This document shows positions 2,730-64,000 of a DNA stretch of 64,000 nt, in pieces. The stretch's first letter is position 1. Each line of letters opens with the position of its first letter. This DNA is from a virus. Made by a program: the position numbers and the translations under genes. The notes beneath the pieces are model-generated. The model was not told the origin of the DNA. It worked only from the letters and a program-made list of their open reading frames with translations, and did no database searches. The stretch covers positions 1-64,000 of the IMG/VR virus record IMGVR_UViG_3300025057_000003, one strand, 5' to 3'.

Positions 2730-2746
2730 TGTATAAAGATGTAACC

Positions 2747-4501: not shown

Positions 4502-4551
4502 AATAACGCAAAATGCGTTACACAAAAAGTTTAATTTAAAAATCAAATATT

Positions 4552-5794: not shown

Positions 5795-5796
5795 GT

Positions 5797-7016: not shown

Positions 7017-7018
7017 AT

Positions 7019-7831: not shown

Positions 7832-7832
7832 A

Positions 7833-8707: not shown

Positions 8708-8778
8708 AAAAGATAGGCTTACATTCCTTTACTGGGATGAGCCAATATGGAAAGAGAAACCAACAAAACAAAATAAAA

Positions 8779-41300: not shown

Positions 41301-41363
41301 ATTATAAATTAGTAAATGTTAGTAATTATTTGTATATTATAATTGTATGTAATAATATAAAAA

Positions 41364-44300: not shown

Positions 44301-44453
44301 CAAGCGGAAAAAGAAGTTGGGCAAGCAGAAATGGCAATGCAACCTACTTATAGAACGCAGAGTGCTCAAAAGCAATCTGGAGGAACAGTAGAACTTGATA
44401 CTGAAACAATAGCAAAGATAATGGCTGCCGGTGGTAGCGTTAAATTTAAATAA
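41364..44453 (+). CDS. Modular virion cargo protein with permuted papain-like and NlpC/P60/CHAP-like modules
   Basis: GHIEAV...YDFLTSNCADGV (His before Cys, permuted). ACNTYSCQIMREAG...GDLV...HSVL. Q/M-rich linkers. Confidence 0.7.
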   Translation: MGYRDLNNRGLHAMRMQQFMQGGGQPQMAPPQMEAKQSPIDELIPAIKSALEQGAALPDVIVSLAQNQVPIEAIQQALMAAGIAQEEIQQAFQMLQQQQAELESQSQQTEGPVEPSAQPQGGAPAPEMAPEQAQMPMAQGGAEIGFAQQGQNNVGPSINSDIPEYQEPIEEVISERLDEEGKVIKDNWEYKKTTDPNTGQIFYERRKKGSKNWIDAGEEGSNSYRAITDIFGDDKTNWKSSPERADHVAGLKQGYRDMMAAQKAKELEAAAQEQGIDFSKYGVKVINYPYEYKGMPPGHIEAVFYDKETGEPMNEVGGISTRINRWGSGYGGDGPRITGDEGYTQALVDFDALNMPGVRSADLDLTPEQMMQFIAEANKFKGTSYKNLNEKQKNFLKMINPDISQIPMAFGTGSDDNYDFLTSNCADGVCRGLGLDRDQFTSAGITNPEKVMDYILQGNNISNVQGKKGPSKEEFLKNVIDQSGINKYTIGGLSDKNINMLSDFVDNISREEAQNLATYAPIAAHYGNKTKEVLNRGIDLDQSFGDMLTNTGNYWRDLIKNSAATGIAGYMALPDGTIPTALDAGAREYIYEPIKDATGGLIDLDQSAGDMFDNTVKYWKREGIGGLWPFEQGGQPNKYSSIINGNKMKYSNLFKNGGGYNNPGFRSLPQYVQNKIKRNAQEGTEIAEAIPLDISAEQQAYMDAKAAYDAEMARVQGVRNKTAELARKYGDANASYSDVGISDRLANWINDTGFACNTYSCQIMREAGATIPQGTEPFEMNGRTYRPGDKLPIIPGNAQFNSYADKLGFELMPKGTLPTEAGDLVRGHMYNAGPGASSGSFHSVLSAGYGDDEILDLYNNPGGVYSGYQKSGFEGSDPDFYTNDSGVMRYVGDSIRLKEAMDKAKQAYDATMPLDQSVVDSNPNSIANLTRQYGGEGMAEIQQGPQRTPSTEELMAIIQKQQMQMQQMQMQMQQMMQAQQAEKEVGQAEMAMQPTYRTQSAQKQSGGTVELDTETIAKIMAAGGSVKFK

Positions 44454-44454
44454 T

Positions 44455-47400: not shown

Positions 47401-48342
47401 GGACTGCCAACTGAATCTGAACCATGTCCTTGTCAAGACGCACGAAAAATTGAAGAGCCTGATGATCCAGAAATGGCGGCTCCTCCTGAAATGACACCAT
47501 GGATTCAAGATCTAATTAAGACAGAAGCTATTGCAAATAGAGAAAGAGATATGTTCTTTCCATGGGAACCTGCAGTTAGAAGATCTAACTTAGAAGTAAT
47601 GTTAGAAGATCCTAACAGAGCAATTAATGCAGCTAATGCTCAATATGCAGCTTCTGCCCAAGCTCTTGGTGCTTTTGGAGGTAAGAATCAATTAGCAGCA
47701 AATTTATCTGGAATGGCTGGACAAGCTGCAGATAATGTTGCAAATATAATTGCTGGTGTAAATGCAAGAAATGTTGCAAGTGTTAACCGAGCTAATGAGG
47801 TTAATCAAAACATAGAAATGCAACTTAATCAATTAGAGGATGCAAGTAAAGTTAGACAGTATGATAATACTCAAAAAGTTCTACAAACATATATGGATGA
47901 AAAGAACTTTGATAGAGAACAATACGCAGATGCTATAGCTAATACAATTACAAATATGGCTAACACATATAATGTAAATCAAATGTATGACTACTTTAAT
48001 ATTGATCCACTAAGAGGAGGTGTTGTAGGTCAAGTAGGTGCTAAAGCATTCCAACCTACTCCAGAACAAGATGAGTGGGCATTTATGGATGATTGGATGG
48101 AAGCAACTAAAAGAGCTAAAACAATGGGTCTTGTAAATAAAGAGGGGAATGTTGATCCTGCAGTTATACAAGGAATACTTCAATCAAAAAGTGGTCAGCG
48201 TAACTATGCAGATCCAAGAGAAGAAGCATGGAGACAGCAGTATAGAAACTATATGGCCGGAGCTCAGACAAGAAAAACAGGTGGTCAACCTGAGATGAAG
48301 AAATGGGCTAGTCCATTTTATACAGGGAAGATGGGAGTATAA
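44455..48342 (+). CDS. Virion cargo/ejection protein
   Basis: ANIEAEGGETV...GPRHSSGGV...FIFSD domain of the kind seen in Bacteroidetes phage virion proteins, plus helical A/N/Q-rich C-terminus. Start moved to ATG 44455. Confidence 0.7.
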   Translation: MPKVKNSKHRVEVTLPDGFQLVDGKLVKKGHGGHVTGDQYEYGLTTFNPHAGESMGPKDTDVKYSLSSVPRDIANIEAEGGETVLTDLNNDGQFGLYDIVGPRHSSGGVPMLLPEQSFIFSDTQAMKMGKGMLAEHGIQSRKKMTPAKVSKQYNLNKYYGILNDEYADKIQANTADLMLQKNKEGLSKLAFQSEMMKGFEEGVPLAAYPYIQSIGMDPFEFAQKMEGMQQGSGDQQAQPMNEADAQAMSAMAAYGRELNQAQFGYGNIGGMGFDNYRNFNQVFGEDMVRPNIRSAYMPMNLNMKGNAIGAFNNLVEGAGRLFSKQDEDGDGLADGAFRDLKAKTNRYRDTHKFLKGKTTEGMENMGDKTMLKYNPETMGYDVQYNDPRYQSNVKTGDIFTEKSKRKLMHAPDLEGYKSFNEMQKEMSGLSDDQKDQMRYMGESLTDFQNEKVNMPKGMQFGMDASGGIGYYDAGATLPEGSQERINEMMMTGSYNKRLGGGLRKAQFGNFDFTQLPPELAKYFPNQSQQDFGPMGPTPYQQKMMNQAEQIKNDPASFFQNFNPQTFGQTDDYANVQSLGPDLKLQQDVKNRNEVTPEDPDPRNAGEKLAGGINRMMNSPLMNAFGEGSVFATKGADFINEMAKNRKRKRAENDLQRMTMADNQFGISEPGILSQGTYDENTGDVFSIMQGVSPFGGNASYYGKHGFEIPMLQDGGEPSWKVGDELTGGTDAWTDWYMSDENKDGRKKRYETYVFLKEAQAKKQGKTFDKSKLPTEEEFHDTYVRAQKQINAIQNFDFGDPDYLKRTDWDSSWEFDPKYKNAKQALKAGAATKRGQNFRYKDAIKQINDKIKQDAKVNNPDITDEELNKLLFKELDDAGIRIFQTGYQAGQIMNVADNDEFLKFIQSGIDDDTFTWNGVTYTISPEDAAFGNTTVGQREQTTVPIYPCKPCPDGPDKGKVPERDEDGNCPCGDCPTCPEGKVPGLPTESEPCPCQDARKIEEPDDPEMAAPPEMTPWIQDLIKTEAIANRERDMFFPWEPAVRRSNLEVMLEDPNRAINAANAQYAASAQALGAFGGKNQLAANLSGMAGQAADNVANIIAGVNARNVASVNRANEVNQNIEMQLNQLEDASKVRQYDNTQKVLQTYMDEKNFDREQYADAIANTITNMANTYNVNQMYDYFNIDPLRGGVVGQVGAKAFQPTPEQDEWAFMDDWMEATKRAKTMGLVNKEGNVDPAVIQGILQSKSGQRNYADPREEAWRQQYRNYMAGAQTRKTGGQPEMKKWASPFYTGKMGV

Positions 48343-48401
48343 ACTTTAAAAGTGTTTTTAATTTGCTTTTTAAACTTATCAAATTTCATTAATTTAGTAC
48401 T

Positions 48402-51400
48402 ATGGCAACGTATATACCAGGAGTAGGAAGTTATTTACCAGAATTTAAACCGTTTACACCGGACTATAAATTCTTGTCTAATGTTTTAGATACAAAGACT
48501 ACAAAGTATGAAACTAACTTTAAAGCATTAAATGATGTTTACAGTAAAGTTGTATATGGTAATCTTTCTAGAAAAGATACTCAGGAGATGCGTGATCAGT
48601 ACGCTGAAAGCTTAGCACCTAAACTTCAACAAATTGCAGGATCTGATTTATCAATGGCTCAAAATGTTGAAGCAGCTAAAGGTTTATTCAGACCTTTCTT
48701 TGAAGAAGATCTTATTGTTAAAGATCTAGCTATGACTAAGAAGTATAGGAATGAAATGCAATATGCCGACATGCTTAAGAATTCTACAGTAAAAGAAGAA
48801 AGAGAAAAGTACTGGCAAACTGGTGTTCAAAAGATGCAATATGAAATGCAAGATTTTGTTGATGCACAAGAGGATAAAGCATTGCGAATGGGAATGATTC
48901 AATATACTCCTGATTCAGACTTGTATCAAATGGCCATGAATTATTTAAATGAATCTGAACTTGGTACAGATGTAATTACAGAAATATCTGAAAATGGTGA
49001 GTGGATGATCCATAGAAAGAATGGAGATTTAATAACTAATGAAGCTTTAACTATGGTGCAAAAGGCACTTAAGGATGATCCAATGGTTGTTAATGCTTAT
49101 CATGCTGCAGAATTTGTTAAGTCAAGACAATATGCGGACCAAGGTATCAAAGAAGGCAGATTTCAAACAATTGATCAAGGTCAACATGAATGGGCTACAA
49201 ATAAAATTGCGGAGATTGAAGCTGAAATAGAAAAAAGAAAAGCAGCATTAGAATCTCAAAAGAAGAAAGCAGAAGAAAAAAATACAGCTTGGCAAAATGC
49301 GCAAAAGCAAAACGGCATTATAAAAGGAAGTGAAGAAGAAAAATTAAAGAATAGCAATAAATCTGATTTAGAGGCATTACGAGAAAGGCTTAATGAATTA
49401 AATCTTTTAGAAGCAGATCAACCTGAATCAGAAAAAAAGTTTAAGACTACGGGTGAATATGATCCTGCAGATACACAATCTCTACTATACAGAGCATATG
49501 GTTTAAGCATGAACTATAACATGGAATCAGATTTACAGGCTGCGGCTTTAAACTATTCTAAGAAGGACGCAATGGTAAAACTAGAGGCCAATGAATATGC
49601 AGTGCTAGCAAAAAGGCATAAATATGATATGGATAAACTTGCAGCTCAGCATGAGTATAAGAAGAGAGAGATGCAAATCAAAGATGCATATGATAAACAA
49701 AATATTGCATTAAAAGCTCAACTTGAAGCTGAGGCTTCTGGTATAGATAAGTTGGATGGTTTAGGTTCTGATGTAATAACTGGAGAAGATGGAACTGTAA
49801 GAGGCGGTTACACAAATGAAGATGGAGAGTTTGAGATGGACGGAGATTATATAGATAATCAAAAAGGCGGAATTGCAGATAGACAACAAGAAGTTAATGC
49901 CTCAAAAGTCAACTTCTTAATTAAAAATTTAGAAAAACAAAAAGATCAAACTAATAGCGGATCAGGTTTACTTAAGTTTGGAAACTTAGAACCAATGACT
50001 TCTCAACAACTCCAAAAATTATTAATAACTGATGGGAAGTTAAATGATAAATATAAAGGTGAGTTTAATAAAGCATTTGAAAGTCTTTCTAAAAATATAA
50101 GAGATATTGATCCAACGGTTGAAGCATTTGCGGATGGTTCACCATTATATTTTACTCAAGGAAATGAAGCTGCTGAATATGCTGCATTACGTAGTGAGTT
50201 AGATAATATAGAAAGTACAGAACTTCAACTTAATCATGCTTTAGAACAGTTATATAAAACTTCTAAAAGCAATCTAGATATAGCTATTACAACTAACTTT
50301 GATACTGACTATGATGAGGAAACTCAAGAGTTACTTCAAAAAGCAGTTATGGAATATGGCGCTCCTTCATTGTTTTATACAAATGAGAATGGCGTTGTTG
50401 ATATGTATGATGAAGATGAATACTTAGATGTATTTGCTGAATGGTCTAAAAAGAATGGAAATAAAGTATCTATAAAAGATACAAAGTATGATGATACTGC
50501 TTGGTATACAGGACGTGGTTCTGAAAGAATGGCTGTTGGTGATACCTGGGCAGGTTTAGGTCATGGTAAAAGTGAGACTATTACGTATGAAACTAGAAGA
50601 GTAAGTGATGGTCTTGGTGGAGCTTATATGCAGGTTCCTGTTAAAAGGTTAGGCTCTACTTTAGAATGGCAAAGAGATATATCTGATACACAAGCCCGTG
50701 ATTTTTATTCATCAATGAAAGAACTAAGCAACTTAGCTATTAGAGGAAAGCTTGAGTCTGTTCAAACAGTTACAGATAAAAAAGGAGATCTTGCCTCAGT
50801 TGGTAATAAGTTTGATGTATATGATGTTGAGCAAGCATTACGCGGGGTTGATAAAGCTAATATGACTGCAGGTGAAATAATGAATGTTCCTGCATATAGA
50901 GTCCTACTAGATCCAAGGGCTGTTACAGATGATGCTGCAATGTTTATAAAAGAAATAGATAAACTTGTCAATCAAAAAATGACAGAGCAAATGACATTTG
51001 GTGAGTATGCTTTTAATGAAGCATCTAAAGAAAGTAGTTATTGGGATGATGCAGATATAATTTCAGATAAAAATAATGATGATATGTTTAATTACGACAA
51101 AGCAGAACCTTTACTTAAACAGTATATAAGAGACCTTACAAAAAGAAGAAGCACAGATAGTAAATCAGTATCAGATTATCCAATAGCTGAAATTACATAC
51201 TATCCGTCATGGACTTCAAATAATAAAGAAGAAATGAATTCTCCTTATGCTGGATATGAAATTGAATTTAGTGAGGAGTATTTAGATGGTTTAAGAAAAG
51301 AAGGAGGTCTTTTGCACAACGTTAAAGGAAACAAGCTTAGTATCATTATAGATAGAGAGCAAGATCAAAATCCTAGAAAACTAGGTAAAATGAATTATTC

Positions 51401-51761
51401 ATATGTTGCATCTTCAATAGCAACTAGTGATGATGCAAGCTTCACACGATCTATTCCAAATGGTGGTTCATTTTCTATTTTCCAAGGTGTAGATGGTCAG
51501 TATAATATTAAAACTCAATTGTTGCAGTGGGATAATGAACAAGGTAAATTTATGTCTAGCGTCTTTGTTAAAGCAATGGAAGATGATAGGGGTGTTCCAA
51601 TAACTCAAGCCAATAGAAATTACTTAGATTTTTATATGAATCAATTTTTATATGAATTTGAAAAAATTGGAACTAGCCAAACAGATTTAAAAAATGCTTG
51701 GAAGAAAGCTAATCCTACTGCTTTAGTTGAAGAACCAGAAATGTTATTTGCAAATAATTAA
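48402..51761 (+). CDS. Large putative ejected (internal) virion protein
   Basis: 1119 aa, coiled-coil rich, directly upstream of the virion RNAP gene. Confidence 0.7.
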   Translation: MATYIPGVGSYLPEFKPFTPDYKFLSNVLDTKTTKYETNFKALNDVYSKVVYGNLSRKDTQEMRDQYAESLAPKLQQIAGSDLSMAQNVEAAKGLFRPFFEEDLIVKDLAMTKKYRNEMQYADMLKNSTVKEEREKYWQTGVQKMQYEMQDFVDAQEDKALRMGMIQYTPDSDLYQMAMNYLNESELGTDVITEISENGEWMIHRKNGDLITNEALTMVQKALKDDPMVVNAYHAAEFVKSRQYADQGIKEGRFQTIDQGQHEWATNKIAEIEAEIEKRKAALESQKKKAEEKNTAWQNAQKQNGIIKGSEEEKLKNSNKSDLEALRERLNELNLLEADQPESEKKFKTTGEYDPADTQSLLYRAYGLSMNYNMESDLQAAALNYSKKDAMVKLEANEYAVLAKRHKYDMDKLAAQHEYKKREMQIKDAYDKQNIALKAQLEAEASGIDKLDGLGSDVITGEDGTVRGGYTNEDGEFEMDGDYIDNQKGGIADRQQEVNASKVNFLIKNLEKQKDQTNSGSGLLKFGNLEPMTSQQLQKLLITDGKLNDKYKGEFNKAFESLSKNIRDIDPTVEAFADGSPLYFTQGNEAAEYAALRSELDNIESTELQLNHALEQLYKTSKSNLDIAITTNFDTDYDEETQELLQKAVMEYGAPSLFYTNENGVVDMYDEDEYLDVFAEWSKKNGNKVSIKDTKYDDTAWYTGRGSERMAVGDTWAGLGHGKSETITYETRRVSDGLGGAYMQVPVKRLGSTLEWQRDISDTQARDFYSSMKELSNLAIRGKLESVQTVTDKKGDLASVGNKFDVYDVEQALRGVDKANMTAGEIMNVPAYRVLLDPRAVTDDAAMFIKEIDKLVNQKMTEQMTFGEYAFNEASKESSYWDDADIISDKNNDDMFNYDKAEPLLKQYIRDLTKRRSTDSKSVSDYPIAEITYYPSWTSNNKEEMNSPYAGYEIEFSEEYLDGLRKEGGLLHNVKGNKLSIIIDREQDQNPRKLGKMNYSYVASSIATSDDASFTRSIPNGGSFSIFQGVDGQYNIKTQLLQWDNEQGKFMSSVFVKAMEDDRGVPITQANRNYLDFYMNQFLYEFEKIGTSQTDLKNAWKKANPTALVEEPEMLFANN

Positions 51762-51765: not shown

Positions 51766-54700
51766 ATGTCAAATTTAGATAATACGGTATTTAATAATGA
51801 AATTGCAAATACTCCAGTTGGTGTTCCACCGGATCAGTTTACATTTGAAACAATTTCAGATTTAGAGATACCTGCAGATCTTGAAGCTTTTGATGAAGCT
51901 GTAGATCCGCAGTATCAAGCAATGTTAAACTCTGCTTCAGATGAGATTAACAAAACTATTGCATCTCCGATAGCTAATATGAATAATTTACCTGGTGCGG
52001 CTGGAGGAAGATATAATCCTGCTGCTCAGCAAGAAATACCCTCTCCAGATACAATGGAAGGTAAAATTAGATTATTTCAGAATATTAATAAAAGAACTCC
52101 TCAAATAAGTAAGACGGATAATATATTTGGAGATAATACTGTAAATATAAAAGATCCAACATATTCTGGTATAGCTGCAACGCAGTTTGATAGATATTAT
52201 GCTCATCCTGCTTTTTCTAGATTAGGGTTTCGTCCTTATAGAAATAATGAAGAGTTTTACAATACCCATAGTAGTGGTTGGGAAGATGCTCAACGTATGT
52301 TTGGCCAACTAAATAAACTTATGGGAACTGGTTATCTAAGTTCTTATAGAAGCTGGTTTGAGGATGATGTAATGGATCTTAAGTCTGCTATTGAATATGA
52401 AGACGCTGTAAGAATAGGTAGTTCTAGTAGAGGCGGTTTTGGTGCTGGTCTTAATAACTTTGTATTAAACTCAGGTTATACTTTAGGTATTATTGGTTCA
52501 ATTGCAGTTGAAGAACTTGCAATGTGGGGAGCTACTGTAGCTTTAGGTTTAGCAACTCCTGTTACAGGCGGGGCTTCTGGTGCTGCTGCTGTAGCAACAG
52601 GTACAGCTGCTGCTGCAAGAACTGCATATAATGCTGGCAGATTGGCAAAAGCATTTAGATCTATAGGTCAAAGTTTTAAAATAGGTAAGGCATTTCAGGC
52701 TACAAGAACAATGGTTAACAGCTTTAAGAATATAGATAAAGTAAGAGACTTACATTCAGCTGTTAGAGGAACCGGAAATGTTTTAGGTAAGATACTTGCA
52801 CCTGAAACAGTAAGAGCATTTAAACAATTAAATAGTGCTAAAAAAGCTGGTGAAAATATAACAAACATGGCAAAAGTTTCTAAGACAATTGGAGGCTTTT
52901 ATAGGGATCTTAGATCAATGAACTTTGCTTTGTCTGAAGGTAGAATGGAAGGTGGTTCTGTATATAAAGAACAATGGGAAAAAGAATTTATAATTGCATT
53001 AGATAAAAATAGAGAAGCCGGTTTAGGGGATAACTTATCATATGAGCAACTGCAAGGTGTAAATGAAAGAGCTAAGGCTGCAGCATTAACAACAACATTG
53101 TTTAATGCTCCAGTTATATATTTGTCTAATCAGTTGCTTTTAGGAAATGCCTTTGGTGGATATAAAAGAAGTATAAATCAAATTGCTAGAGAAGGTATTG
53201 AGGGTGCCGCATCTAGAGTTATTAGAGGAAAGGCTGCAACTAAAGTTATAAAAGATACTGTTAAAAAACAAGCAGGAAAGGAAGCTGGAAAGCAAGGTAA
53301 AAGACAAGTACAAAAACAATTATATGAAAGTGTAGAAGATGGTTTTATGAACTGGAGATCTACACTTAAGAAAGTAAAATCAGCTGGTCTAAGAGGCGGT
53401 GCTACTATGGCTGGTGCAGCTGCTCTACGATTTACTGCAAATAATTTATCTGAAGGTATTCAGGAAGTTTATCAAGAAGCCGTAGCAGAAGGTATTAAAG
53501 ATTACTATACTAATTTAGCATTTGATCCTTTAGCTGGAGGATCAGATATGTTTAATGCATCATTAAGTCATGGTATAAAATCACAAATGAGTGCTCAAGG
53601 TTTACATACTTTTGCATCTGGATTTTTCATGAGTACTTTAGTTGGGGGACCTCAAAAATTAATATTCCAAACAATGCCTGAATTGTATCAGGCAACATTT
53701 AACAAGGAACAATATCAAAATTATAAAGCTCAAAAAGAAGCTGAAGTAACTAGAATAGTAGATTCCATGAATGAGTATGGTGATGCACTTGCTCAAGATC
53801 CAACTAATTTATTTGGTCTTGAAAAAATGCAATATGCTACTCAAAAACAAGCAGCAGAAGCAATGGAAGAAGCTCAAGCAAATGATGATTTGATGGGCTT
53901 TATTGACATGAAGGATCATGCTAAGTTCCATAATATGTTTACTTTATTTGAAACTGGGAAAACAGATTTCTTTAAAGAACAGCTTGAAGATTATTTATCA
54001 TTAACAGATCAAGAGTTAGCTGAAGCATTTCCAGATAGAAAAGCAGATGCAAAATCAGGAAAGCTTAGGAATAGTATACAAAATCAGATTACTAAGCTTG
54101 ATAAAATGGAGCAATGGTTTGCTCAAAATAAAGATAAAATTCAAGTTACAGCAAAGCCGGAAAACTTTGAAAAAGGTAGTAGAGAACATCAAGATGAGCA
54201 AATAAAATTTTTAGCGCAAAGACATGCTAAGTATTTATATCTATTTACTAAAGATGGATTTGAAAGAGCTGCAGAAAGAACAGATGCTATATATGAAAAA
54301 CTAGCAACAGATCCTATAATAAAAGATTTAGCTGCAAATGATCTTACAGTATTTTTAACCAAAGATGCTTTACTAACAGAGATTGGACAACTTAAAGGTG
54401 AGGTAGAAATTCTTGGCGATCCAGGTTCAAAACAAGCAAAAAAACAGAAAGAAAAAAAGCTAGCACATTTAGAAAAGATAGCGGATGTACTATACAATGA
54501 AGAATATCTAAATAAAGATGGGAGCTTTGATAAAAGGAGAATTGGAAAACTTATGCCATTAATAGGCGCTTATCTAGATGATGTAGCTAAAACTAGAAAT
54601 GGCTTTGTAGATAATGAAATGCTTTTGGATACTGTTAAGAGTATTATTGATCATAATCATTTAAGTGTTAGACAAGCAATGTATGATAGAGCTCTTAGAG

Positions 54701-57700
54701 TAATGACTGATCCAGCATATCTAGATGATTTGCTTACAGCTGGTAAGTTATATTTTAAATTTGCTTATGAAAATAGAAAGGCTTTATTTAGAGAGGCTAT
54801 TGAAAAATTTATTAATAAGCAAGAGATAAACCAACTCTTAAATGCACTTGCAGATTTAGGTGTATATCCAGATATGGATAGTACAATACTATTTTCACAA
54901 ACAGGAGATCCAAAAGATCTAGGGTCATTTTATAATGCTGAAGGTATAGTAAATAAAGTAGATGATCCAGAGCTATATGAAAAGATTGAAAATGCAATTG
55001 ATATATATAGACAAACTGCAACAGATGCATTAAAAAAAGCTGCAGAAAAAGCCAAGAAAGAAGCTGAAGAAGAAGCTAAAGCTAGAACTGCAGAAAAAGC
55101 ATCAAGTAGTGTTGATCAAATATTAGCAGAAGAAGGTGTAGATGCACCCGAGTCTAAGATTATAGGTAAAACAAAAGAAGAATCCCCTGTATTAGATCAA
55201 ACTCTGCAAAGATTGTTTTCTGAAATGAAGGCTTTAGGTCTTAAAAAAGGCTTTACTATAAATCCATCTTGGGAAAAATTTCTTGAAAGTGATTTAGCCA
55301 AAGAGCATATAACTGCTTATAATGGTCTTAAAAAACTTTGGTATCAAACTCTTACAGCCTTACCGGAAGAAGAGAGAATGAATAGATTTAATAAAGACAT
55401 AGGATTTATTGATTGGTTAAAGCTTCAAGGCACTAATGATCTTGTACAAAAAGTTTTAGCAGAAAGTGCTATTGGTGTTGGTGCTATAAGAATTCAAGCT
55501 TTTATACCAGAAGTAGAAGCTGAAATTAGGTCAGATGAAAAAAGAGAAGTAGATTCAAAAACTAGTGACTCTATCAATATTCAGACTAGATTAATTTTTG
55601 ATCATTCTACAGGAGAACAAACAACAATATTTATTCTTACGGATAAAAACAATAATATAATAGATGAAGAAATTTATACATCAGTAGGTATAGATCCAAT
55701 AAGAGCTAATGCTGGATTCCGTACAAGGAAAGAAGCCAATGATGCAATAAAGCTAATGGCTAATTTAGTTCCTGTAACTGCAAGCTTTACTTTTGATGGT
55801 CAGACTTTAACCTATGCTGATGTTGTAGAAGATATAAATACTAAAAAGAAATATGTTATTATATCAGATGCAAATACAGTTGACAGGTATGGTAATCTTC
55901 TATTAATGAAAATAGAAGATATAGGTAAACTTAATCCCAAACAAGCAATAGCCAAAGCAGTTAAAAGCAAGGAGTTAAATTTATCTGAAGGTGATTTTCA
56001 GAAAAGATTTGCAACGGAACAATTGAATGCTGGCATAGCTTCTTTACCTGCAAATGTTACTAAATTAAACGTAAGAGAAGCTACAAGATTAATTCCTCAT
56101 AGAACTAACTTTGATACAAACTTCCCTGAAAATGAAGAGCTTGCTAGAAGACGTTATGATTTTATAATTAAAAATCTTACACCAGAGCAGTTAAAACAAT
56201 TAAAAGTTAAAGTAAGAGTAAGACCTGATGGTGGGAAAGATATAGGTTATGTTAAGTTTGAAGATAAGGCAGCAAATCCATTTATTAAAAAAACTAGAGC
56301 TCCTTATGATATAGAGATAATAGTTCCTGATGAGATACTTTCACCTATACTTGAAAAATTACCAAAAGAAATTAAAAAACCTGAAGGTAATGCATTAGGT
56401 TATATACCTAACGGTAACGTTGTACTTTTGGATAGAACTAATGGTACTGTTATAAATCCTTTGAGTATTACAGCAGATCAAGTAAAGGATTTATTTGATA
56501 TTACCGGAAGCAGCAAAGAACAAGCTGCTGAAGATATTAAGCAAAATTTTGCAATTCAGTTTACAATTATGAACTCAATTGCAGAAAAGCTAGGAGATTC
56601 TGCAGAAATGGAAATGAGCCTTGAGGATATAGGAGGTGTTAATTTCTTTAGTACTCCAGGAGCAATGTTATTTGATGGGATAGACAAACCTGTAAATGAT
56701 TTAAATATTAGAACGGTTGACGGTCTAACTATTATATTAGAAAATACTAAGCTAAAGAATGGCAAGGTAGCTACTAGATTAATACATAATGGTGAACGCG
56801 GTGAGGGTCCAACACTTCAGAGAAAGATTAAAAATGAAATGGATGCTCAAAATCCTAATTTATATGAGGGAGCTACAGGAACGTCTAGATATACAATGGT
56901 TGTAAAAAGTGCTTCAGGAGTATATTCTTACTTTCCAGTTAAAACACCACCATTATCCGATGAGTCTTTGCAAACTATAGCTGACACTCTTATAAAAAGA
57001 TCTGTAGAAACAGCCAAAGAAAACTTTACTTTAGAAGGCAAGGGAAAAACACAAAAGACAAAACTTAAAAATCTACAATATAATAGTACGTTTAATGCAG
57101 ACTTAAATTCTAATGAGTCACAAGATATTCCTAAATTCTATATTGCAGGTAAACCCGGATATACTTTTGAATTAGCTGTAACAGCAAATGGATCTGTATC
57201 AATTAAAGTTTATGATAGAAAATTACAACAATCTCAATATGTAGGACTTTCTGCAGAAGACGTGGCTACATATGCCGAATCAGAAAACAAAGCAGATTTT
57301 ATAAAAGCATTAATAACTAATTATAATGATTATCTATCTAATCTTGATCCTGAAAAAGTAGATACAAAAAAGAAAGCATTCTTTACAAATCTTAAGAAAA
57401 ATGGTGCATTAAAAGAGAATGCGCTTAAAGAATCTTTTGAAGAGCTTGCTCCAGCTGAAGAAATTTCTGATGCTGTAACAACACAGGTTGGACCTAGTGT
57501 TAGAAAAAAGTCTGCCTTAGTTGCAAATATTAGTGGAGTAGATTCTCAGAATATAAAATCTACACCTATTATATCTAGAACAACTAGTGGTGTATTTACA
57601 CCAAGTGAAAGATTTACAGATGCCCAAGGTAAGCCAATACCTAAAGGGCCTGCTATGACTACATCAACTGAGTCATTAAATATAGCTGGAGAAATTGGAA

Positions 57701-60700
57701 GCTTAGAACAGCTTAGTGATGATGAGTTTACTGAATTACAATCAAAAGACTTTTTAACATTAACTAAAGATCAGCAAGAATATTTAGCAAAAAGAGTTGC
57801 AACTCTAAAACAAGAGGAGTTAACAGATAGAGAGCTAACCGTATTAAGTTCTCCTGCGTCTAGTTTAATTAATGTTAGAGCTCAGGCATATAAGATAAAT
57901 GAAGGTCAACCTAAATCTAATGCAACAAGTGCAAGTACAATTGAGAATCAAAAGAAAGAGGTATCACTTGAAAAGCAATTAGAAGATCTTAAGTCTCAGT
58001 TAGACGCTAGAATGAATCAAGTTAAAGAAAATAACTCTGATCTTTTTGGTTTAGCTTTAATAAAAGCAATACAACAGGATAGCACTGTTAAGAGTCTTGA
58101 AAAGAAAATTCAAGAGGTTAGATTAAAACAAGGTGGCGCTAATAAAATATCAGATGATTTATCATTAGATGATGTAAGGCACATTGATGAGTTTGCTGCA
58201 TGGGCTGCTTCCAATTTACCTGAATTTATTACACTAGATAATATTGCAACTTTAACAGACAATATGAAGTCTGGTGGAGAAAGAGTGGGTGCTTTTGTTA
58301 TGTCTCTTGAAAAAATAGCAGGTAAAGAGAGAATAGGCGGTAAGTTATATGTTGGAGCAACATCTAAGTATGCATACCATGAAGCTTTCCATTCTGTATT
58401 TAGATTGCTATTAACAAAAGAACAACAAGAACAATACTATAAACTAGCTAAGAAAGAAGTTCTAGCTAAATTACGTGGAGAAGGTAAAAGCTTAAAAGAA
58501 GAAATAGAAGGTTTAAGAAATACAGACATTGCTAAATATAAAGATTACTCAAATGATAGAATGGAGAAAGAGTATTTGGAAGAATACATGGCAGATGAAT
58601 TTGAAGTCTTCAAACAAAGTCCAAGAAAAACAAAGACAGATTCTTGGATCAAGTCTCTTTTTAATAAAATACTTGAGTGGATTAGAAATGTTCTTGGGAA
58701 TTTCAACGGGCCTCAGCTTAGCCTCTTGTATAAAGATATTAGTTCAGGTAAATATAGACAGGCTGAAGTGGTGTCAAACCCATTTACGGATGATTTATTT
58801 AGTGGCGCTACTATTGACGCTAGTAAGCTTATTAGGTATAAAAAAGAAGTTTTAGAAAATGGAAAGGAGTTATATAAAAACCTTCCAAATAAACAGAGTG
58901 TTGGTATTATATCATCTATTGCAGCTAGAGTTGTTGATCTAGAAATGAAAAATGAAAGTGCAGACTTTGATATTAAGGATGCAGTAAAAAAGTCAATAGA
59001 GTTATACAAGGATTTATATAATCCAGATAATGCTCAGTATAGAAATTTATCTATACAGCAGCTTTTAGATGTAGGTAATATCTATGAAGCCTTTACTAAT
59101 TATGATAAAGATATATTAGAAAGTGTTGTAGATACTCTGGCAATTTATGATATCAAGCTAGAAGTAATTGAAGAATTAGATGAGGAGAATGAAGTAGAAT
59201 ATGGTTTAAGAACTACAGAACAATACGGTAAAGATGCTTCTCAAATAGGAGGAGCTAGATCACTATCTTCATTTTTAAGAAAGTATATTGCATCAACTAC
59301 ATTATCAGAAAAAGATGAATTTGGGAATGAGTATTTGAGCAATGGAGAACGTTTAATTGTTCCTGTAGATTTTAGTGTAGCATATTCTGGCTTCTTAAAA
59401 GCTGCAGCTGGTACAACAGATCCTATAAGAATTTTACAAAAGTTATATATATTTTCACAAAATAACCCACAAACAAGAGCAATTGTAGAAAGGTTATATG
59501 GAGATTTAAATTTAGTTTGGGAAGATCAACTTGAAGATGGTATTATACCAGCAGAAACTAGCAATAATTTATTGTTCCAATCAATGCTAAAAGGTTTTGA
59601 AAACTTTAAGATTGATTACTTATTCTTACATACAAATACAAAAGATGGTTCCGTAGTAGGTTATTCTGCTGCAAATAGAGATGATGCTCATACTCAAATT
59701 GAGAGATGGGAAACTGAGTATAAACATAGAAGAAGATTATACTTAGCAGATCCTAAATTAAAAGAAGAAGCTTCTGATGAACTTGCTAGACTATTGGAGT
59801 TTATCAATACTGATCAGCCTATAAATAAAATGACTAATGTTAAATTAGCAGAGGTATCAAAGAATATATCAGAGGCGCTAGCTAAAACAATGGGTATCAA
59901 ACTCCATCCTGATTATATTGCATATACTATTGCAAACAATATTACTAAACCAACTAAATATCAATCAGCATTATTAGAATCTCAAAAAGATGTTATTCTA
60001 ATAGATCCAGAGGCTATAATGTATATGAAGCAACAGTTTGATGGAGATGCAGATTTAATGTCACAGGCTGAAGACGAAGGTGTTTATAATAGATTGAGGA
60101 GATTAGGTTTAGGTAATGCAATGTTTGATGAAACAGTTGGAGCATCAGTCTTCAAAAATGCTAATGGAGATTTAGTTTATTCTCATCAATTGCCTACAAT
60201 GCACTTGAAAAAAATGGCAGAGCTAAATGATATTGTTAGCGATCCTACTAAAGTTGCAGAGCTTATTGAAAATGAACCTTACGTTGCAACTAATTATTTA
60301 TTAAATGATCCGGCATTCCGTCAAATGGCTAAGGAAGGCTTGCTTAAAATAACTAGAATATCTGGTAGTAAATCAAGTAAAGGTATTGAAGTAGATAGTG
60401 ATGGAGGTGTAATTGAAGGATATGATAGAAATGAAAAAGGAACTGTTTATGGAGATTATGATCCTAAACAATTCTTGGCTTCTTTGCTAAGCGCTTATAT
60501 ATCAGGTGTTAATCCAAAGTCTGGTAGATTGCAAGCTGGTGTAATTCCAGAGGGTCAAGATGATATGGTTGCATTAGCTCCGGTATTACTGAGAGTTATT
60601 GAAGCATCTAACACTGGTGACTTGTCTGCCTTACCTATAATAAAAGCAGTTGAAGAAAATGCAAAGGGTGAAGCTCAAATTACAGATCAAGCTTTAGACG

Positions 60701-63700
60701 CATATGTAAAAAATATAACTGCAGAGTTTGATAGAATACAAAGAGAGTTAAATCCATATACAAAAACTAAAAATTTAAAACCTGGATATAATGCAGATAA
60801 GAAAGGTCAAAAACCAGATCTAAATGGAAGAGCTTACAGATTTGCTAATAATAAACTTATATTAACTCCATCCAATTCAATAACTCCTGATGTAGAATCT
60901 GGAAAACTTTTAGATAGTAGCTCTACAATAACTAGAATTAGAGAAGGAAGTCAAAAACTATTTATAAAGACAGATGCTGCAGCAGTAGCAATGGGATTCT
61001 TTGCGGAAGGAGAAAGTACTAATTTAGAAATAGGAATAGGTGAGGAAACTAAAGTTGGAAAAGGTAAAAGAAGAGTATTTAAACAAGCTGCTAAAGACAA
61101 ATCTACATTCCATAGAGTTAAGTTAATTGGTAAGAAATCTGTAAATAACTTAACATTATTCAATGTTGAGGATATGTTAGGAGAGGCTATATCAGATAAA
61201 AAGACAAACACCCATACTAAAGAAGTAGAGATTGGAAATCAAACAAGATGGGTTGAGTCTGATGCAATGAAGGCATTTTTATTGGGTGAAAAGGAGTTCT
61301 TTGTTTATGAAGTAATTGAAAATGACTTAACTAATCTAACAGACGAAGAGCTTGACATACTAGAGAAAGAAGCTGTAGATCAAGAAGATTATGCTAAAGC
61401 TAAAGAAATAGCAGATCTAAGATCATATGGTGAAATAAATTATGCATCTGAATTAGAAAGAATTTTAAAAGAACATGCTAAAGAACAAGAAGGAAAATCT
61501 GAAGAAGATTATGAAACACTAACTTTAGAAGAAGCTCTTTCTAAAATTCCTAGCGATAAAGACATTAATCTAGATTCTTTAAAAGCTTTTATTACTGAAA
61601 GAATAGATCAAGAGTTTAAGCAATTTAATAAAGACATAAATAATGAATTCTATAGAGTAGAGGAAGATGGTAGTGTATACTTAGATTTACCTAGATTCAT
61701 ATCAACGGGTCTTAAGAGAAATGAGAACTCAACAGGTAGTGAAGCTGCATTTGAAAATGCAAATCAAAAGTTAAACCTTACAAATAATAGAACTCATAAT
61801 TTAAAGCAAATCTTTATTAATGACTGGATTAATACTACAGCAATAAATGATCTTTTGCTTGGTGATCAAGCAGTGTCCCTTAAAGATGGGGTTGATGCAG
61901 TTAAAAGAGCCAAAATGCAAAATGCTGCATACTATAGTGCAGCAAGCAGAATATCTTCTAAAAAACATAATGTATTGAATCCTCTGCAAAAGATATCAAT
62001 GTTTGCTGTGACAGATCCAATTGCGTCTTCAATACATACTAAAGAAAATATAGAGCAAGCAGATGCACAAAACTGGATGACTGTAAAAGCATTTAGATAT
62101 ATGTGGTTTGGCTTTGGAAAACTTACAGAAACTCAATCTAAATTGCTAGATAAAATAGAAGCTGGAGCTGAGATTTCAGTAGAGGAAATATTTGGAGCAG
62201 CCGGTGCCGTTAAAAAGCAAGAGATGTTAAACTCTAAAAAACTTGTTTATGGTGATGGTAAAGTGTTTGACAAATTCTCGGTAATACCTCTTAGTAAGGC
62301 AATGACATCTATGAAGGACAAAAACGGAAACTGGATTGCAAAACCAGGACGTGAGATACTTCATAATATGAGGGTAAAGATGGAGCAGTATGAACAAGAT
62401 CAGCTTGATCAAGGTATTGATACTGTTGCAATGGTGGCCCCTTTATCTGCTTTAAAAATGATGAAGGAGAATGTTTCATTAATTGATGATTTAGTAAATC
62501 CTAATGAAACTATTATTCAATCTCAAGGTAAAGGTACTGATGCTCAGTATATGGGTAGAAGCCTTTCATATGAGGCAGTTAAGTCAGGTAAACCCAATAG
62601 ACTTACTACGGATAATGTAATGGATCTTGATGCTAATTATATGGGTCTGCAAGTATTAAACCCTTCTAATAAAGAAGAGATTATAGATCCTACTCAGATT
62701 AAAACATTATTAACTGGTGAGCAAGATGACAAGGCCACAGTAAGAATTGATGGCGAGGTAGTTTCAATAGGAGCTTTAAGAAAAAGATACAATGAATTAG
62801 TTAGTGCAAGGCTAACTCAAAAGTATATAGATAAAAGAAATCTTATATTTGATATTGATCCTGAATATGCAATGGATCAGTTACATAAAAGTATTGAAGC
62901 AAAAAAGATAACACCTGATTTATATTCTTTCTTGAATTATGCTCAGACATCATTGCTAGCAAGTCAGTCATCATCACAATTATTAGAGTTCTTTTCATTT
63001 GATGAGGACGGCAATCCTACTTTTGATTTTGTCCAAGATTCACCAATGGTTGAAGCTAAGTTTAAGCAGTTATTCTTAAGCTATTTTAGTAAAGGAGTAA
63101 TGGCTGAAAAAATACCAGGTACCGGTGCGGCATTGCTTTCTGATTATGGTTTTTCTCAATATAGAAAGGTTTATAGTGTAGATGAAAATAACTATATAGA
63201 TAGACAAGAAATAATAAGAACAAATGATTTTGCTCAGAACTATTCTATGAGTGATGTGCAAATGGAAGGTAATGATGTTCTTGATTTATCCAATGATGAT
63301 AAGTTTGATGTATTAGCTCAAAGAGTTAATAAACTTAAGAAGGGTGAGTTTATTATAGTAAAAGATAGACTTAGACCTAATATGAAAGAATATAACATTA
63401 AAGGTGAATATACTGGAGTTAAATATTCCGAGGCTTTAATGCCTGCACATTCAAAAGAAGTTTATGAAAATTTAGATCTTTTAAAACCTGATGCAGCAAT
63501 TCCAGATTCAGTTGGTAAGATGTTTGGTATACGTATTCCATCCCAAGATAATCACTCTACTATAAATGTTAAGGTTGTAGATTTTTTACCTGTGTTTAAT
63601 GGATCAACGATAGTTGCATCAAGAGAACTTGTTGAGGTATCAGGAGCTGACTTTGATATTGATAAGTTATATCTTCAAATGAAAGAATACTATCTTAAGG

Positions 63701-64000
63701 ATGGTGAGTTCTTTGAGTATAAAAACAACTTTGAAGACTATGTAAGATATATTAATAAAAAAGTTAAGAAGAAAGGAAGTACTTATGCTGAAGCTGCAAT
63801 GAAAGCTAAGAAAAGAAAAGGTAAACTTTTATCTGACGCAAAGTTTGAAGCAGCTAAAAAAAGAGGTTTTGATGTTCAGGCAATTCATGCTTTAAGAATA
63901 TTAAACCTTCCTTTAACTAAACCAGAATACAATAAATATGTAGAAACAACAGGAAGAGCTCCTTTTGCGGCAGGGTATAATAATGAAATATTAGATGTTA
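51766..64000 (+). CDS. Giant virion polyprotein (>4078 aa, 3' end outside window) with zincin-like metallopeptidase and crAss-type RNA polymerase domains
   Basis: ATG at 51766. The same frame gives YHEAFH (HEAFH 58378-58392), LEEYMADEF (58576-58602), GIRIPSQD (~63526-63549) and SGADFDIDKL (DFDID 63649-63663). It is absent from the ORF track, consistent with no in-frame stop before the window end. Confidence 0.9.
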   Translation, partial: MSNLDNTVFNNEIANTPVGVPPDQFTFETISDLEIPADLEAFDEAVDPQYQAMLNSASDEINKTIASPIANMNNLPGAAGGRYNPAAQQEIPSPDTMEGKIRLFQNINKRTPQISKTDNIFGDNTVNIKDPTYSGIAATQFDRYYAHPAFSRLGFRPYRNNEEFYNTHSSGWEDAQRMFGQLNKLMGTGYLSSYRSWFEDDVMDLKSAIEYEDAVRIGSSSRGGFGAGLNNFVLNSGYTLGIIGSIAVEELAMWGATVALGLATPVTGGASGAAAVATGTAAAARTAYNAGRLAKAFRSIGQSFKIGKAFQATRTMVNSFKNIDKVRDLHSAVRGTGNVLGKILAPETVRAFKQLNSAKKAGENITNMAKVSKTIGGFYRDLRSMNFALSEGRMEGGSVYKEQWEKEFIIALDKNREAGLGDNLSYEQLQGVNERAKAAALTTTLFNAPVIYLSNQLLLGNAFGGYKRSINQIAREGIEGAASRVIRGKAATKVIKDTVKKQAGKEAGKQGKRQVQKQLYESVEDGFMNWRSTLKKVKSAGLRGGATMAGAAALRFTANNLSEGIQEVYQEAVAEGIKDYYTNLAFDPLAGGSDMFNASLSHGIKSQMSAQGLHTFASGFFMSTLVGGPQKLIFQTMPELYQATFNKEQYQNYKAQKEAEVTRIVDSMNEYGDALAQDPTNLFGLEKMQYATQKQAAEAMEEAQANDDLMGFIDMKDHAKFHNMFTLFETGKTDFFKEQLEDYLSLTDQELAEAFPDRKADAKSGKLRNSIQNQITKLDKMEQWFAQNKDKIQVTAKPENFEKGSREHQDEQIKFLAQRHAKYLYLFTKDGFERAAERTDAIYEKLATDPIIKDLAANDLTVFLTKDALLTEIGQLKGEVEILGDPGSKQAKKQKEKKLAHLEKIADVLYNEEYLNKDGSFDKRRIGKLMPLIGAYLDDVAKTRNGFVDNEMLLDTVKSIIDHNHLSVRQAMYDRALRVMTDPAYLDDLLTAGKLYFKFAYENRKALFREAIEKFINKQEINQLLNALADLGVYPDMDSTILFSQTGDPKDLGSFYNAEGIVNKVDDPELYEKIENAIDIYRQTATDALKKAAEKAKKEAEEEAKARTAEKASSSVDQILAEEGVDAPESKIIGKTKEESPVLDQTLQRLFSEMKALGLKKGFTINPSWEKFLESDLAKEHITAYNGLKKLWYQTLTALPEEERMNRFNKDIGFIDWLKLQGTNDLVQKVLAESAIGVGAIRIQAFIPEVEAEIRSDEKREVDSKTSDSINIQTRLIFDHSTGEQTTIFILTDKNNNIIDEEIYTSVGIDPIRANAGFRTRKEANDAIKLMANLVPVTASFTFDGQTLTYADVVEDINTKKKYVIISDANTVDRYGNLLLMKIEDIGKLNPKQAIAKAVKSKELNLSEGDFQKRFATEQLNAGIASLPANVTKLNVREATRLIPHRTNFDTNFPENEELARRRYDFIIKNLTPEQLKQLKVKVRVRPDGGKDIGYVKFEDKAANPFIKKTRAPYDIEIIVPDEILSPILEKLPKEIKKPEGNALGYIPNGNVVLLDRTNGTVINPLSITADQVKDLFDITGSSKEQAAEDIKQNFAIQFTIMNSIAEKLGDSAEMEMSLEDIGGVNFFSTPGAMLFDGIDKPVNDLNIRTVDGLTIILENTKLKNGKVATRLIHNGERGEGPTLQRKIKNEMDAQNPNLYEGATGTSRYTMVVKSASGVYSYFPVKTPPLSDESLQTIADTLIKRSVETAKENFTLEGKGKTQKTKLKNLQYNSTFNADLNSNESQDIPKFYIAGKPGYTFELAVTANGSVSIKVYDRKLQQSQYVGLSAEDVATYAESENKADFIKALITNYNDYLSNLDPEKVDTKKKAFFTNLKKNGALKENALKESFEELAPAEEISDAVTTQVGPSVRKKSALVANISGVDSQNIKSTPIISRTTSGVFTPSERFTDAQGKPIPKGPAMTTSTESLNIAGEIGSLEQLSDDEFTELQSKDFLTLTKDQQEYLAKRVATLKQEELTDRELTVLSSPASSLINVRAQAYKINEGQPKSNATSASTIENQKKEVSLEKQLEDLKSQLDARMNQVKENNSDLFGLALIKAIQQDSTVKSLEKKIQEVRLKQGGANKISDDLSLDDVRHIDEFAAWAASNLPEFITLDNIATLTDNMKSGGERVGAFVMSLEKIAGKERIGGKLYVGATSKYAYHEAFHSVFRLLLTKEQQEQYYKLAKKEVLAKLRGEGKSLKEEIEGLRNTDIAKYKDYSNDRMEKEYLEEYMADEFEVFKQSPRKTKTDSWIKSLFNKILEWIRNVLGNFNGPQLSLLYKDISSGKYRQAEVVSNPFTDDLFSGATIDASKLIRYKKEVLENGKELYKNLPNKQSVGIISSIAARVVDLEMKNESADFDIKDAVKKSIELYKDLYNPDNAQYRNLSIQQLLDVGNIYEAFTNYDKDILESVVDTLAIYDIKLEVIEELDEENEVEYGLRTTEQYGKDASQIGGARSLSSFLRKYIASTTLSEKDEFGNEYLSNGERLIVPVDFSVAYSGFLKAAAGTTDPIRILQKLYIFSQNNPQTRAIVERLYGDLNLVWEDQLEDGIIPAETSNNLLFQSMLKGFENFKIDYLFLHTNTKDGSVVGYSAANRDDAHTQIERWETEYKHRRRLYLADPKLKEEASDELARLLEFINTDQPINKMTNVKLAEVSKNISEALAKTMGIKLHPDYIAYTIANNITKPTKYQSALLESQKDVILIDPEAIMYMKQQFDGDADLMSQAEDEGVYNRLRRLGLGNAMFDETVGASVFKNANGDLVYSHQLPTMHLKKMAELNDIVSDPTKVAELIENEPYVATNYLLNDPAFRQMAKEGLLKITRISGSKSSKGIEVDSDGGVIEGYDRNEKGTVYGDYDPKQFLASLLSAYISGVNPKSGRLQAGVIPEGQDDMVALAPVLLRVIEASNTGDLSALPIIKAVEENAKGEAQITDQALDAYVKNITAEFDRIQRELNPYTKTKNLKPGYNADKKGQKPDLNGRAYRFANNKLILTPSNSITPDVESGKLLDSSSTITRIREGSQKLFIKTDAAAVAMGFFAEGESTNLEIGIGEETKVGKGKRRVFKQAAKDKSTFHRVKLIGKKSVNNLTLFNVEDMLGEAISDKKTNTHTKEVEIGNQTRWVESDAMKAFLLGEKEFFVYEVIENDLTNLTDEELDILEKEAVDQEDYAKAKEIADLRSYGEINYASELERILKEHAKEQEGKSEEDYETLTLEEALSKIPSDKDINLDSLKAFITERIDQEFKQFNKDINNEFYRVEEDGSVYLDLPRFISTGLKRNENSTGSEAAFENANQKLNLTNNRTHNLKQIFINDWINTTAINDLLLGDQAVSLKDGVDAVKRAKMQNAAYYSAASRISSKKHNVLNPLQKISMFAVTDPIASSIHTKENIEQADAQNWMTVKAFRYMWFGFGKLTETQSKLLDKIEAGAEISVEEIFGAAGAVKKQEMLNSKKLVYGDGKVFDKFSVIPLSKAMTSMKDKNGNWIAKPGREILHNMRVKMEQYEQDQLDQGIDTVAMVAPLSALKMMKENVSLIDDLVNPNETIIQSQGKGTDAQYMGRSLSYEAVKSGKPNRLTTDNVMDLDANYMGLQVLNPSNKEEIIDPTQIKTLLTGEQDDKATVRIDGEVVSIGALRKRYNELVSARLTQKYIDKRNLIFDIDPEYAMDQLHKSIEAKKITPDLYSFLNYAQTSLLASQSSSQLLEFFSFDEDGNPTFDFVQDSPMVEAKFKQLFLSYFSKGVMAEKIPGTGAALLSDYGFSQYRKVYSVDENNYIDRQEIIRTNDFAQNYSMSDVQMEGNDVLDLSNDDKFDVLAQRVNKLKKGEFIIVKDRLRPNMKEYNIKGEYTGVKYSEALMPAHSKEVYENLDLLKPDAAIPDSVGKMFGIRIPSQDNHSTINVKVVDFLPVFNGSTIVASRELVEVSGADFDIDKLYLQMKEYYLKDGEFFEYKNNFEDYVRYINKKVKKKGSTYAEAAMKAKKRKGKLLSDAKFEAAKKRGFDVQAIHALRILNLPLTKPEYNKYVETTGRAPFAAGYNNEILDV

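Follow-up and report, generated by a model that had tools for sequence, protein, structure and literature searches.

The window (the whole stretch of DNA analysed, 64,000 nucleotides) corresponds to bases 1-64000 of the 115,584-bp IMG/VR virus record IMGVR_UViG_3300025057_000003, rated complete by CheckV. A giant open reading frame (ORF; P0003) starts in it with an ATG at 51766 (+ strand), runs past the window end and has its stop at genome position 67461 (5,231 amino acids, aa). The locus is a standard three-part crassvirus RNA polymerase (RNAP) cargo block (A-Z, R, U) whose first two parts are fused. A, N-terminal module; Z, domain with a zincin (HExxH) motif; R, virion RNAP; U, gp49-like protein encoded downstream. 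The giant ORF is regarded, with a probability of about 0.85, as having arisen by a natural in-frame fusion between two cargo genes, each of which is a separate gene in cultured crassviruses. Its product would comprise a gp47-like RNAP-associated protein (module A and the HExxH domain, aa 1 to ~2350), a virion RNAP like gp66/gp50 (aa ~2350-4700) and an extension of ~500 aa with a DUF7831 domain, the product of the gp49-like next gene being the third member of the block. Both proteins are almost devoid of cysteine, and the single cysteine of each lies at the junction between the two genes. Crassvirus cargo could thus be one covalent single-file chain, in which disulfides between terminal cysteines replace fusion where A-Z, R and U are separate; this is given slightly less than even odds (about 0.45).

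Cysteines of the cargo block

One cysteine is found in the 5,231 aa of the giant chain (C5229, third from the end; tail ...INSCFK) and one in the 1,898 aa of the next protein (C5; MAVRC...). The cysteine content of most other genes of the genome is 0.3-3%, a few being higher. Over the 62 loci left after de-replication of the 75 fetched IMG/VR loci related to the giant ORF, cysteine frequency is 0.039% in cargo (360,825 residues) versus 0.835% in control ORFs taken from these loci. At the control frequency, ~44 cysteines would be expected in the giant chain, and the probability of finding at most one is ~5e-18 (Poisson estimate). The single cysteine lies within the last 2-9 residues in 19/20 aligned homologues, down to 26% identity. 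Cysteine suppression has been published for ejection proteins of Schitoviridae and was attributed to passage through the oxidising periplasm (PMC11445570); gp50 (3,500 aa), gp51 and gp52 of N4 contain no cysteine. Crassvirus cargo must pass unfolded through tail constrictions of <50 Å (PMC10172136). The near-total lack of cysteine fits an unfolded ejection route through tail and envelope, and the logic proposed for Schitoviridae fits crassvirus cargo by analogy.

The ends of the cargo proteins were surveyed in the 62 de-replicated loci and in 10 reference phages. Apart from the exceptions weighed below, cysteine pairs were found at split junctions and none at fused junctions. RNAP-bearing ORFs have a cysteine in their last six residues in 59/60 cases (their sole cysteine in 55), and downstream ORFs have one at positions 2-8 in 56/57 cases (sole cysteine in 53); the corresponding values for control ORFs are 15/61 and 9/61. 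Conservation extends to the residues around these cysteines, with EEFIxQIKxC at the C-terminus of the giant chain and MAxCxN[KR]N at the N-terminus of the next protein. The outer ends of the whole chain (N-terminus of A, C-terminus of U) are free of cysteine; its very end is also conserved (...DFYIK in relatives, ...NNFFIK here).

The same arrangement is found in the reference phages. The cysteines of phi14:2 are gp67 C1797, gp66 C3 and C2179, and gp65 C3; those of crAss001 are gp47 C2339, gp50 C5 and C2404, and gp49 C5; cr85_1 and cr128_1 show the same pattern. In p-crAssphage, Rudgehvirus and cr8_1, where R and U are fused, a pair is present only at the A-Z|R junction and there is none at the end of the fused protein. 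Cysteines on both sides of a split were found in phi14:2, crAss001, cr85, cr128, p-crAss, Rudgehvirus, cr8 and locus L073. The split forms L085 and L088 have a cysteine on every junction end visible in the locus, and the Z-R protein of L091, whose upstream partner lies off the contig, has C3 and a cysteine at the second-to-last residue. In L073 (12877-19412), the RNAP ORF is separated from the last cargo gene by an ORF for an additional protein of 859 aa, which has cysteine at residue 3 and at its final residue but nowhere else; a protein with Cys3 is encoded next, which makes a chain with three junctions.

The retained junction pairs are the new element of this analysis. Their distribution, together with a known structure, suggests a head-to-tail disulfide as the simplest reading. 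In the cyanopodophage A4, cryo-electron microscopy has shown a disulfide from Cys1715 of gp27 to Cys5 of gp26, both ejection proteins (PMC12002296). The positions of these C-terminal and N-terminal cysteines match those of C5229 and C5, for which the bond is a predicted one. Unlike the phage studied here, A4 has no virion RNAP as far as PMC12002296 reports, and residues 1-1,178 of the downstream protein, searched by tblastn, gave no match in the Anabaena phage records (A-4L). Disulfides have also been found in the tail of crAss001 virions (PMC10172136). No mention of the terminal cysteines was found in the gp66 preprint, the crAss001 atlas, the Crassvirales review or by full-text searches of the literature.

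Two other roles of the terminal cysteines were considered and rejected. The N-terminal MAxC is not a lipoprotein signal, as no hydrophobic stretch precedes the cysteine; the C-terminal cysteine is not part of a CaaX box, being followed by 0 to 5 residues. A thioredoxin (PF00085) was searched for in the phage genome and none was found.

Other ORFs of the window also differ in cysteine content. Large ORFs upstream of the giant ORF (37182-51761) are poor in cysteine: none in 48402-51761 (1,119 aa), 2 in 37182-41300 (1,372 aa) and 4 in 41364-44453. The ORFs 30766-37182 and 22223-25819, in contrast, contain 2-3% cysteine. The boundary in cysteine content may mark which virion proteins are ejected.

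The giant frame and its modules

The sequence-only reading had proposed an un-called frame of >4000 aa. This frame is real: in the window it is open on the + strand from 51727 (TTG) or 51766 (ATG) to 63999, with no stop in an open-ended ORF listing; translation from 51766 gives 4,078 stop-free residues (51766..64000), and extension of the contig gives the 5,231 aa without in-frame stop or frameshift. The frame is absent from the default ORF list because it runs off the window. The motif positions already named in that reading (HEAFH, EEYMADEF, RIPSQ, DFDID and the Gly/Ala stretch) were all recovered by translation.

The frame is kept at full length in homologues: 65 homologous protein clusters were found, many of 5,100-5,500 aa, with full-length coverage and 33-98% identity, and most related IMG/VR loci have a single giant frame with both HExxH and DFDxD motifs. 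Logan contigs from four seawater/marine studies cover long parts of the ORF (e.g. 700-12884 and 3550-16600 of L002, the piece of the phage's own genome in which 16464 is genome 67464), with ~2% substitutions and zero inserted or deleted letters. In favour of an artefact, whether a wrong assembly or a sequencing error that joins two genes, there is only the general expectation that an ORF of such length in a metagenomic contig may be chimeric. An artefact is already refuted by the homologues and the independent contigs and is left with practically no probability: dozens of contigs at 30-98% identity share the fused frame, contigs of four studies span it without indels, and residue conservation is unbroken across the Z/R boundary. 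Most of the stretch is present in 17 runs from six seawater or marine studies. For 58000-64000 of the window, near-identical sequence was found in seawater/marine metagenome runs of at least 6 studies (2017-2025), and a partial share in one sediment metatranscriptome; the phage seems to be widespread in the sea. The terminase, portal and major capsid proteins of the genome match crass PHROG families, and TerL is ~25% identical to Crassvirales terminases; by these matches the genome is that of a distant crAss-like phage.

Module R (aa ~2350 to ~4700; 58813..64000, +, cut by the window end at aa 4078) was delimited from profile and tblastn matches. Its catalytic Mg-binding motif, DFDID (aa 3962-3966; 63649..63663, +), is aligned with 1361-DFDID-1365 of phi14:2 gp66 (SGADFDIDKLY with SGSDFDIDKMY); D3962, F3963, D3964 and D3966 are invariant in 20-28 homologues, and every Asp of this motif is needed for RNA synthesis by gp66 (preprint 10.1101/2020.03.07.982082). 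RIPSQDNHS (aa 3923-3931, with RIPSQ at 3923-3927; 63532..63558, +), a conserved strand before the catalytic loop, is aligned with GYRIPNQGQSS of gp66; the 20 full-length homologues all have R3923, I3924, P3925, Q3927, D3928, H3930 and S3931. A profile built from the alignment of these homologues (alignment A1; E-values at Z=100,000) matches phi14:2 gp66 (residues 1316-1835, E 5e-12), crAss001 gp50 (E 5e-19) and p-crAssphage gp44 (E 6e-15), and tblastn with the region around DFDID gave matches in 92 crAss-like records annotated RNA polymerase. A single-sequence phmmer search of the chain against PDB sequences returned only chance-level rows, without gp66.

The catalytic core (aa 3300-4480; 61663..64000 in the window, +, the model ending at genome 65205) was modelled with AlphaFold2 (mean predicted local distance difference test, pLDDT, 75.7; predicted template-modelling score, pTM, 0.76). 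The top Foldseek match of the model, and the sole significant one, is 6vr4_A, the structure of phi14:2 gp66 (E 1.9e-21, probability 1.00; template-modelling score 0.52 over 1,176 columns). Weaker rows correspond to P23-45 gp96 and QDE-1 (E >0.01) and to Pol II/multisubunit RNAPs. The match is one of overall fold. The distance from the end of module Z to DFDID is ~1,615 aa, and stand-alone RNAPs have the motif 1,361-1,609 aa from their N-terminus; this similar spacing in fused and stand-alone forms indicates that the polymerase module begins directly after the HEAFH domain. On profiles and model, the assignment of the C-terminal part as a crAss-type virion RNAP (two-barrel, QDE-1-like) is solid, as the sequence-only reading had held: the predicted fold around DFDID matches that of gp66 (6VR4) and the motif is invariant.

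The polymerase is followed by a C-terminal extension of ~500 aa with a DUF7831 domain (genome 65902-66159, aa 4713-4798; L002:14902-15159; Pfam E 3.6e-9). Members of this family in the ESM Atlas are mostly stand-alone phage proteins of 112-142 aa. DUF7831 is lacking in homologues of 4,400-4,900 aa, and in homologue P0040 it is replaced by a NADAR domain (PF08719). The site looks like a variable accessory slot, whose domains would be co-delivered with the polymerase.

Module A (aa 1 to ~2110; 51766..58095, +; 0 cysteine) corresponds to the N-terminal part of crAss001 gp47-type proteins. A profile built from 42 homologous N-terminal modules matches the N-terminal parts, in preserved order, of cr85 gp056 (287-568, E 6e-10), cr128 gp051 (313-931, E 4e-5) and crAss001 gp47 (374-676, E 1e-4). 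Pfam and PHROGs gave no match on the first 4,078 aa, and tblastn with the single sequence of aa 1-2000 gave none in 50,697 phage records. The module includes a hydrophobic Gly/Ala-rich segment (aa 237-285; 52474..52620, +), made of a core, GYTxGIIGSIAVEELAxWGA, that most of the 20 aligned homologues share, and a Gly/Ala tail whose length differs among them. It contains the most hydrophobic 19-mer of the chain (Kyte-Doolittle maximum 1.49 over 19 residues). A classical transmembrane helix was rejected, hydropathy being under the usual threshold of 1.6 and a Glu-Glu pair being found in the middle (E249 is invariant, E250 almost). By analogy with DEV gp71-N, the segment could plausibly have a membrane or channel role.

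Module Z (aa ~2115-2345; 58108..58800, +) was delimited from an alignment of 54 domain homologues (alignment A4) and from profile matches. HEAFH (aa 2205-2209; 58378..58392, +), a candidate metal-binding/catalytic motif, is invariant in the 20 full-length and the 54 domain homologues, in support of the sequence-only reading on this point. EEYMADEF (aa 2272-2279; 58579..58602, +) is a candidate third-ligand helix, by comparison with the gluzincin HExxH...E arrangement. Y-H-E-A-F-H, E2272, E2273, A2276 and F2279 are invariant in the alignment; D2277 shows no variation among the full-length homologues and very little among the 54. The downstream acidic ligand would be either E2272 or E2273. The profile matches the C-terminal end of crAss001 gp47 (2068-2295, E 4e-17), cr128_1 gp051, cr85_1 gp056 and cr4_1 gp26. 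It does not match p-crAss gp45, phi14:2 gp65 or N4 gp50, so that a single family cannot be claimed for all crassvirus HExxH domains. Among PDB sequences, the profile search gave only a weak row, the Pro-Pro endopeptidase 6FPC (E 0.2). The model of the module has a pLDDT of 70.4 (<50 in the strand region) and, with this poor strand region, gave no match in the PDB with Foldseek. The best relevant row of VIA-align is 3dl1, a putative metal-dependent hydrolase (Z 4.8, 94 residues, root-mean-square deviation 4.1), the wide list consisting mostly of helical-hairpin matches to model residues 274-326; a BFVD search returned only other crAss-like proteins.

The next ORF begins 2 nucleotides after the giant ORF (genome 67464-73160; L002:16464 to L003:2160) and matches crAss001 gp49 (E 2e-17) and the C-terminal part of p-crAssphage gp44 (E 1e-6). 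Residues 421-612 of this gp49-like protein resemble residues 1659-1850 of crAss001 gp47 (E 1e-5), which indicates that modules have moved between cargo genes; the same residues give a weak, sub-threshold Pfam match to PD-(D/E)XK nucleases.

Three separate genes make up the cargo block of both phi14:2 and crAss001. The block of phi14:2 shares with the one described here its three parts, its gene order and its low cysteine content with terminal cysteines, and gp66 (PDB 6VR4) shares an identical DFDID with similar flanks and the fold over ~1,180 residues. However, the HExxH motif of phi14:2 (HEIMH) is in gp65, downstream of the RNAP, whereas here A, Z and R are in one chain with HExxH upstream of the RNAP. 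In crAss001, where gp47, gp50 and gp49 are RNAP-associated cargo proteins found in virions by mass spectrometry, gp47 is collinear with aa 1 to ~2350, its C-terminal end carrying the HEAFH domain; gp50 corresponds to the RNAP part and gp49 to the next ORF, and the terminal cysteine pattern is shared. Unlike here, gp47 is encoded on the strand opposite to gp50 and gp49. The cysteines of the gp47 end and the gp50 start are absent from the giant chain, where these parts are fused, and the DUF7831 C-terminal extension is additional.

Two other phages, both with low identity to the giant chain, have partly fused blocks. The gp26 of cr4_1 (Suoliviridae, RefSeq) is encoded by one gene (4,491 aa, HEAFH at 2002 and DFDID at 3433), and carries a cysteine four residues before the C-terminus; gp27 (1,803 aa), with C3, comes next, which gives the layout of the block described here. 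Unlike the giant ORF, which has none, gp26 and gp27 contain 38 and 18 in-frame stops under table 11 (L014:6092-24980), as would be expected from the stop-codon recoding that has been reported in Suoliviridae; the ORF of the window needs no recoding. In p-crAssphage, by contrast, R and U are fused and A-Z is separate, with a cysteine pair at gp45 C1956 and gp44 C3; the record annotates gp45 as 'RNAP associated protein fused to zincin protease' and gp44 (4,070 aa) as 'RNAP catalytic subunit fused to unknown RNAP subunit'. The giant virion RNAPs of Schitoviridae (N4 gp50, DEV gp71) are also virion-packed, ejected proteins of ~3,500 aa with flanking non-polymerase domains (PMC13434306, PMC11445570), a HExxH subdomain and conserved cysteine suppression. 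They differ by their T7-like single-subunit polymerase, and N4 gp50/gp51/gp52 have no terminal cysteine pair. In N4 gp50 (L092:10524-21026), HELVH is at residue 2228; its layout is convergent with that of the giant chain, the polymerase being unrelated.

The sequence-only reading had placed a membrane region and a zincin, as a long extra N-terminal region, before an otherwise stand-alone RNAP. The fusion holds. The view of this region as an unexplained addition does not, since it is collinear with crAss001 gp47 and matches gp47-type proteins in both its zincin-motif domain (E 4e-17) and module A (E 6e-10 to 1e-4). The central inference of that reading is a restatement of a known architecture: fused crassvirus cargo genes have already been described (Drobysheva preprint; review PMC10136315), and RNAP genes of up to ~6,000 aa are given as a hallmark of the crAss-like group (PMC10136315).

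Alternatives to the proposed tethered chain

The terminal cysteines could instead be unpaired with each other, either binding other partners (the portal or the inside of the capsid, a metal ion bound jointly by several copies, a lipid or another modifying group) or being merely tolerated at the termini of cysteine-purged proteins. One cysteine per terminus could indeed do other chemistry, and several observations weigh against the tether. The 15/61 control ORFs with a C-terminal cysteine exceed the expectation from composition only. IAS virus and cr116_1 each have one unpaired terminal cysteine, hence unequal N- and C-terminal numbers. In L057 and L090, the next long ORF has no N-terminal cysteine, a short cysteine-bearing ORF lying in between. 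Packaging, ejection, polymerase activity and the disulfide of the giant chain are, moreover, all inferred from sequence and analogy. Unpaired cysteines are nevertheless considered unlikely: a cysteine is found on both sides of the junction wherever both are readable (A-Z|R, R|U, around the extra protein of L073), both sides are free of cysteine when the junction is fused, as are the outer chain ends, the flanking motifs EEFIxQIKxC and MAxCxN[KR]N are conserved, and a structure from an unrelated podophage shows such a pair as a disulfide. Two loci are set apart. L064, without cysteines, is probably an artefactual split. In L047 (15417-23154), the giant ORF ends without cysteine and is followed by a cysteine-containing ORF of 609 aa, an ORF of 148 aa with Cys3 and a cysteine four residues from its end, and the usual Cys4 protein; a mobile gene or an intron may have been inserted here and have split the giant gene near its end.

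The other alternatives concern the HExxH domain, whose candidate substrates are its own chain, the cell wall and host proteins. In a self-processing polyprotein, as put forward in the sequence-only reading and also in the phi14:2 preprint, the zincin within the chain would cut the 5,231-aa precursor, before packaging or after delivery, into module A, protease and free RNAP. The invariance of HExxH...EE over 54 homologues points to a site under selection, and recombinant gp66 is active alone, so that a free RNAP is a workable end state (preprint 10.1101/2020.03.07.982082). The description of fused forms as 'likely cleaved' (Drobysheva preprint) favours cleavage and counts against the main reading. 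The absence of a match of any Pfam peptidase family to any of the 54 module Z homologues at E up to 1 and the lack of a matching fold among solved peptidases (Foldseek on the PDB, VIA-align; strands poorly predicted) also count against the main reading, and the missing peptidase fold equally against self-cleavage. The domain has, moreover, been retained in phages with separate genes (crAss001 in gp47, cr85, cr128), so separating modules is unlikely to be the reason for it, and split forms appear to be re-joined through their terminal cysteines, a pattern which suggests that selection favours keeping the cargo proteins joined. Self-processing is thus quite unlikely. A role unrelated to chain processing, as an envelope- or host-directed enzyme that would cleave peptidoglycan peptides, lipoproteins or proteins of the host while the cargo is being ejected, in the manner of the lytic domains of other podophage ejection proteins, is rated only somewhat unlikely. 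Peptidoglycan digestion was offered as an alternative in the same preprint (Drobysheva preprint), the A4 ejection protein gp28 has lytic transglycosylase and metallopeptidase domains (PMC12002296), the N4 virion RNAP has a HExxH subdomain (HELVH at 2228) despite its unrelated polymerase (PMC13434306), and the weak profile resemblance of module Z is to a Pro-Pro endopeptidase (E 0.2). On the other side, no significant similarity to any characterised cell-wall peptidase and no sequence relation between the N4 and crAss HExxH domains were detected, and HExxH is known in non-protease enzymes too. If the cargo is a covalent chain, the conserved HExxH domain would serve a purpose other than polyprotein processing.

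Proposed delivery of the chain and its significance

Orthologues of gp65, gp66 and gp67 are found in virions (phi14:2 preprint). By analogy with phi14:2, crAss001 and N4-like phages, the giant chain would be packed in the capsid and threaded, largely unfolded and ahead of the DNA, through the tail and the cell envelope; it would then refold in the cytoplasm and, as proposed from phi14:2 and crAss001, transcribe early genes. Successive cargo proteins would be linked by their ends, most probably through a disulfide that forms in the virion and is reduced once in the host cytoplasm, gene fusion being an alternative route to the same single-file chain. Here, the giant chain and its Cys5 partner would together form a chain of ~7,100 residues.

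Giant fused RNAP genes are a textbook feature of crAss-like phages, and the ORF itself adds no more than a marine lineage with the A-Z-R layout. What it exposes is a constraint: ~7,000 residues of putatively injected protein are purged of cysteine except for a matched pair at the sole remaining gene junction, and throughout the order such a pair is present where genes are split and absent where they are fused. Should the pairs be disulfides, the exit of several very large proteins from the capsid, in a set sequence and through a channel of 25-45 Å, would be accounted for, and reduction would provide a redox-triggered release step; the idea lends itself to direct tests in cultured phi14:2 and crAss001. 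The pattern also bears on whether the 'polyprotein' forms need cleaving at all.

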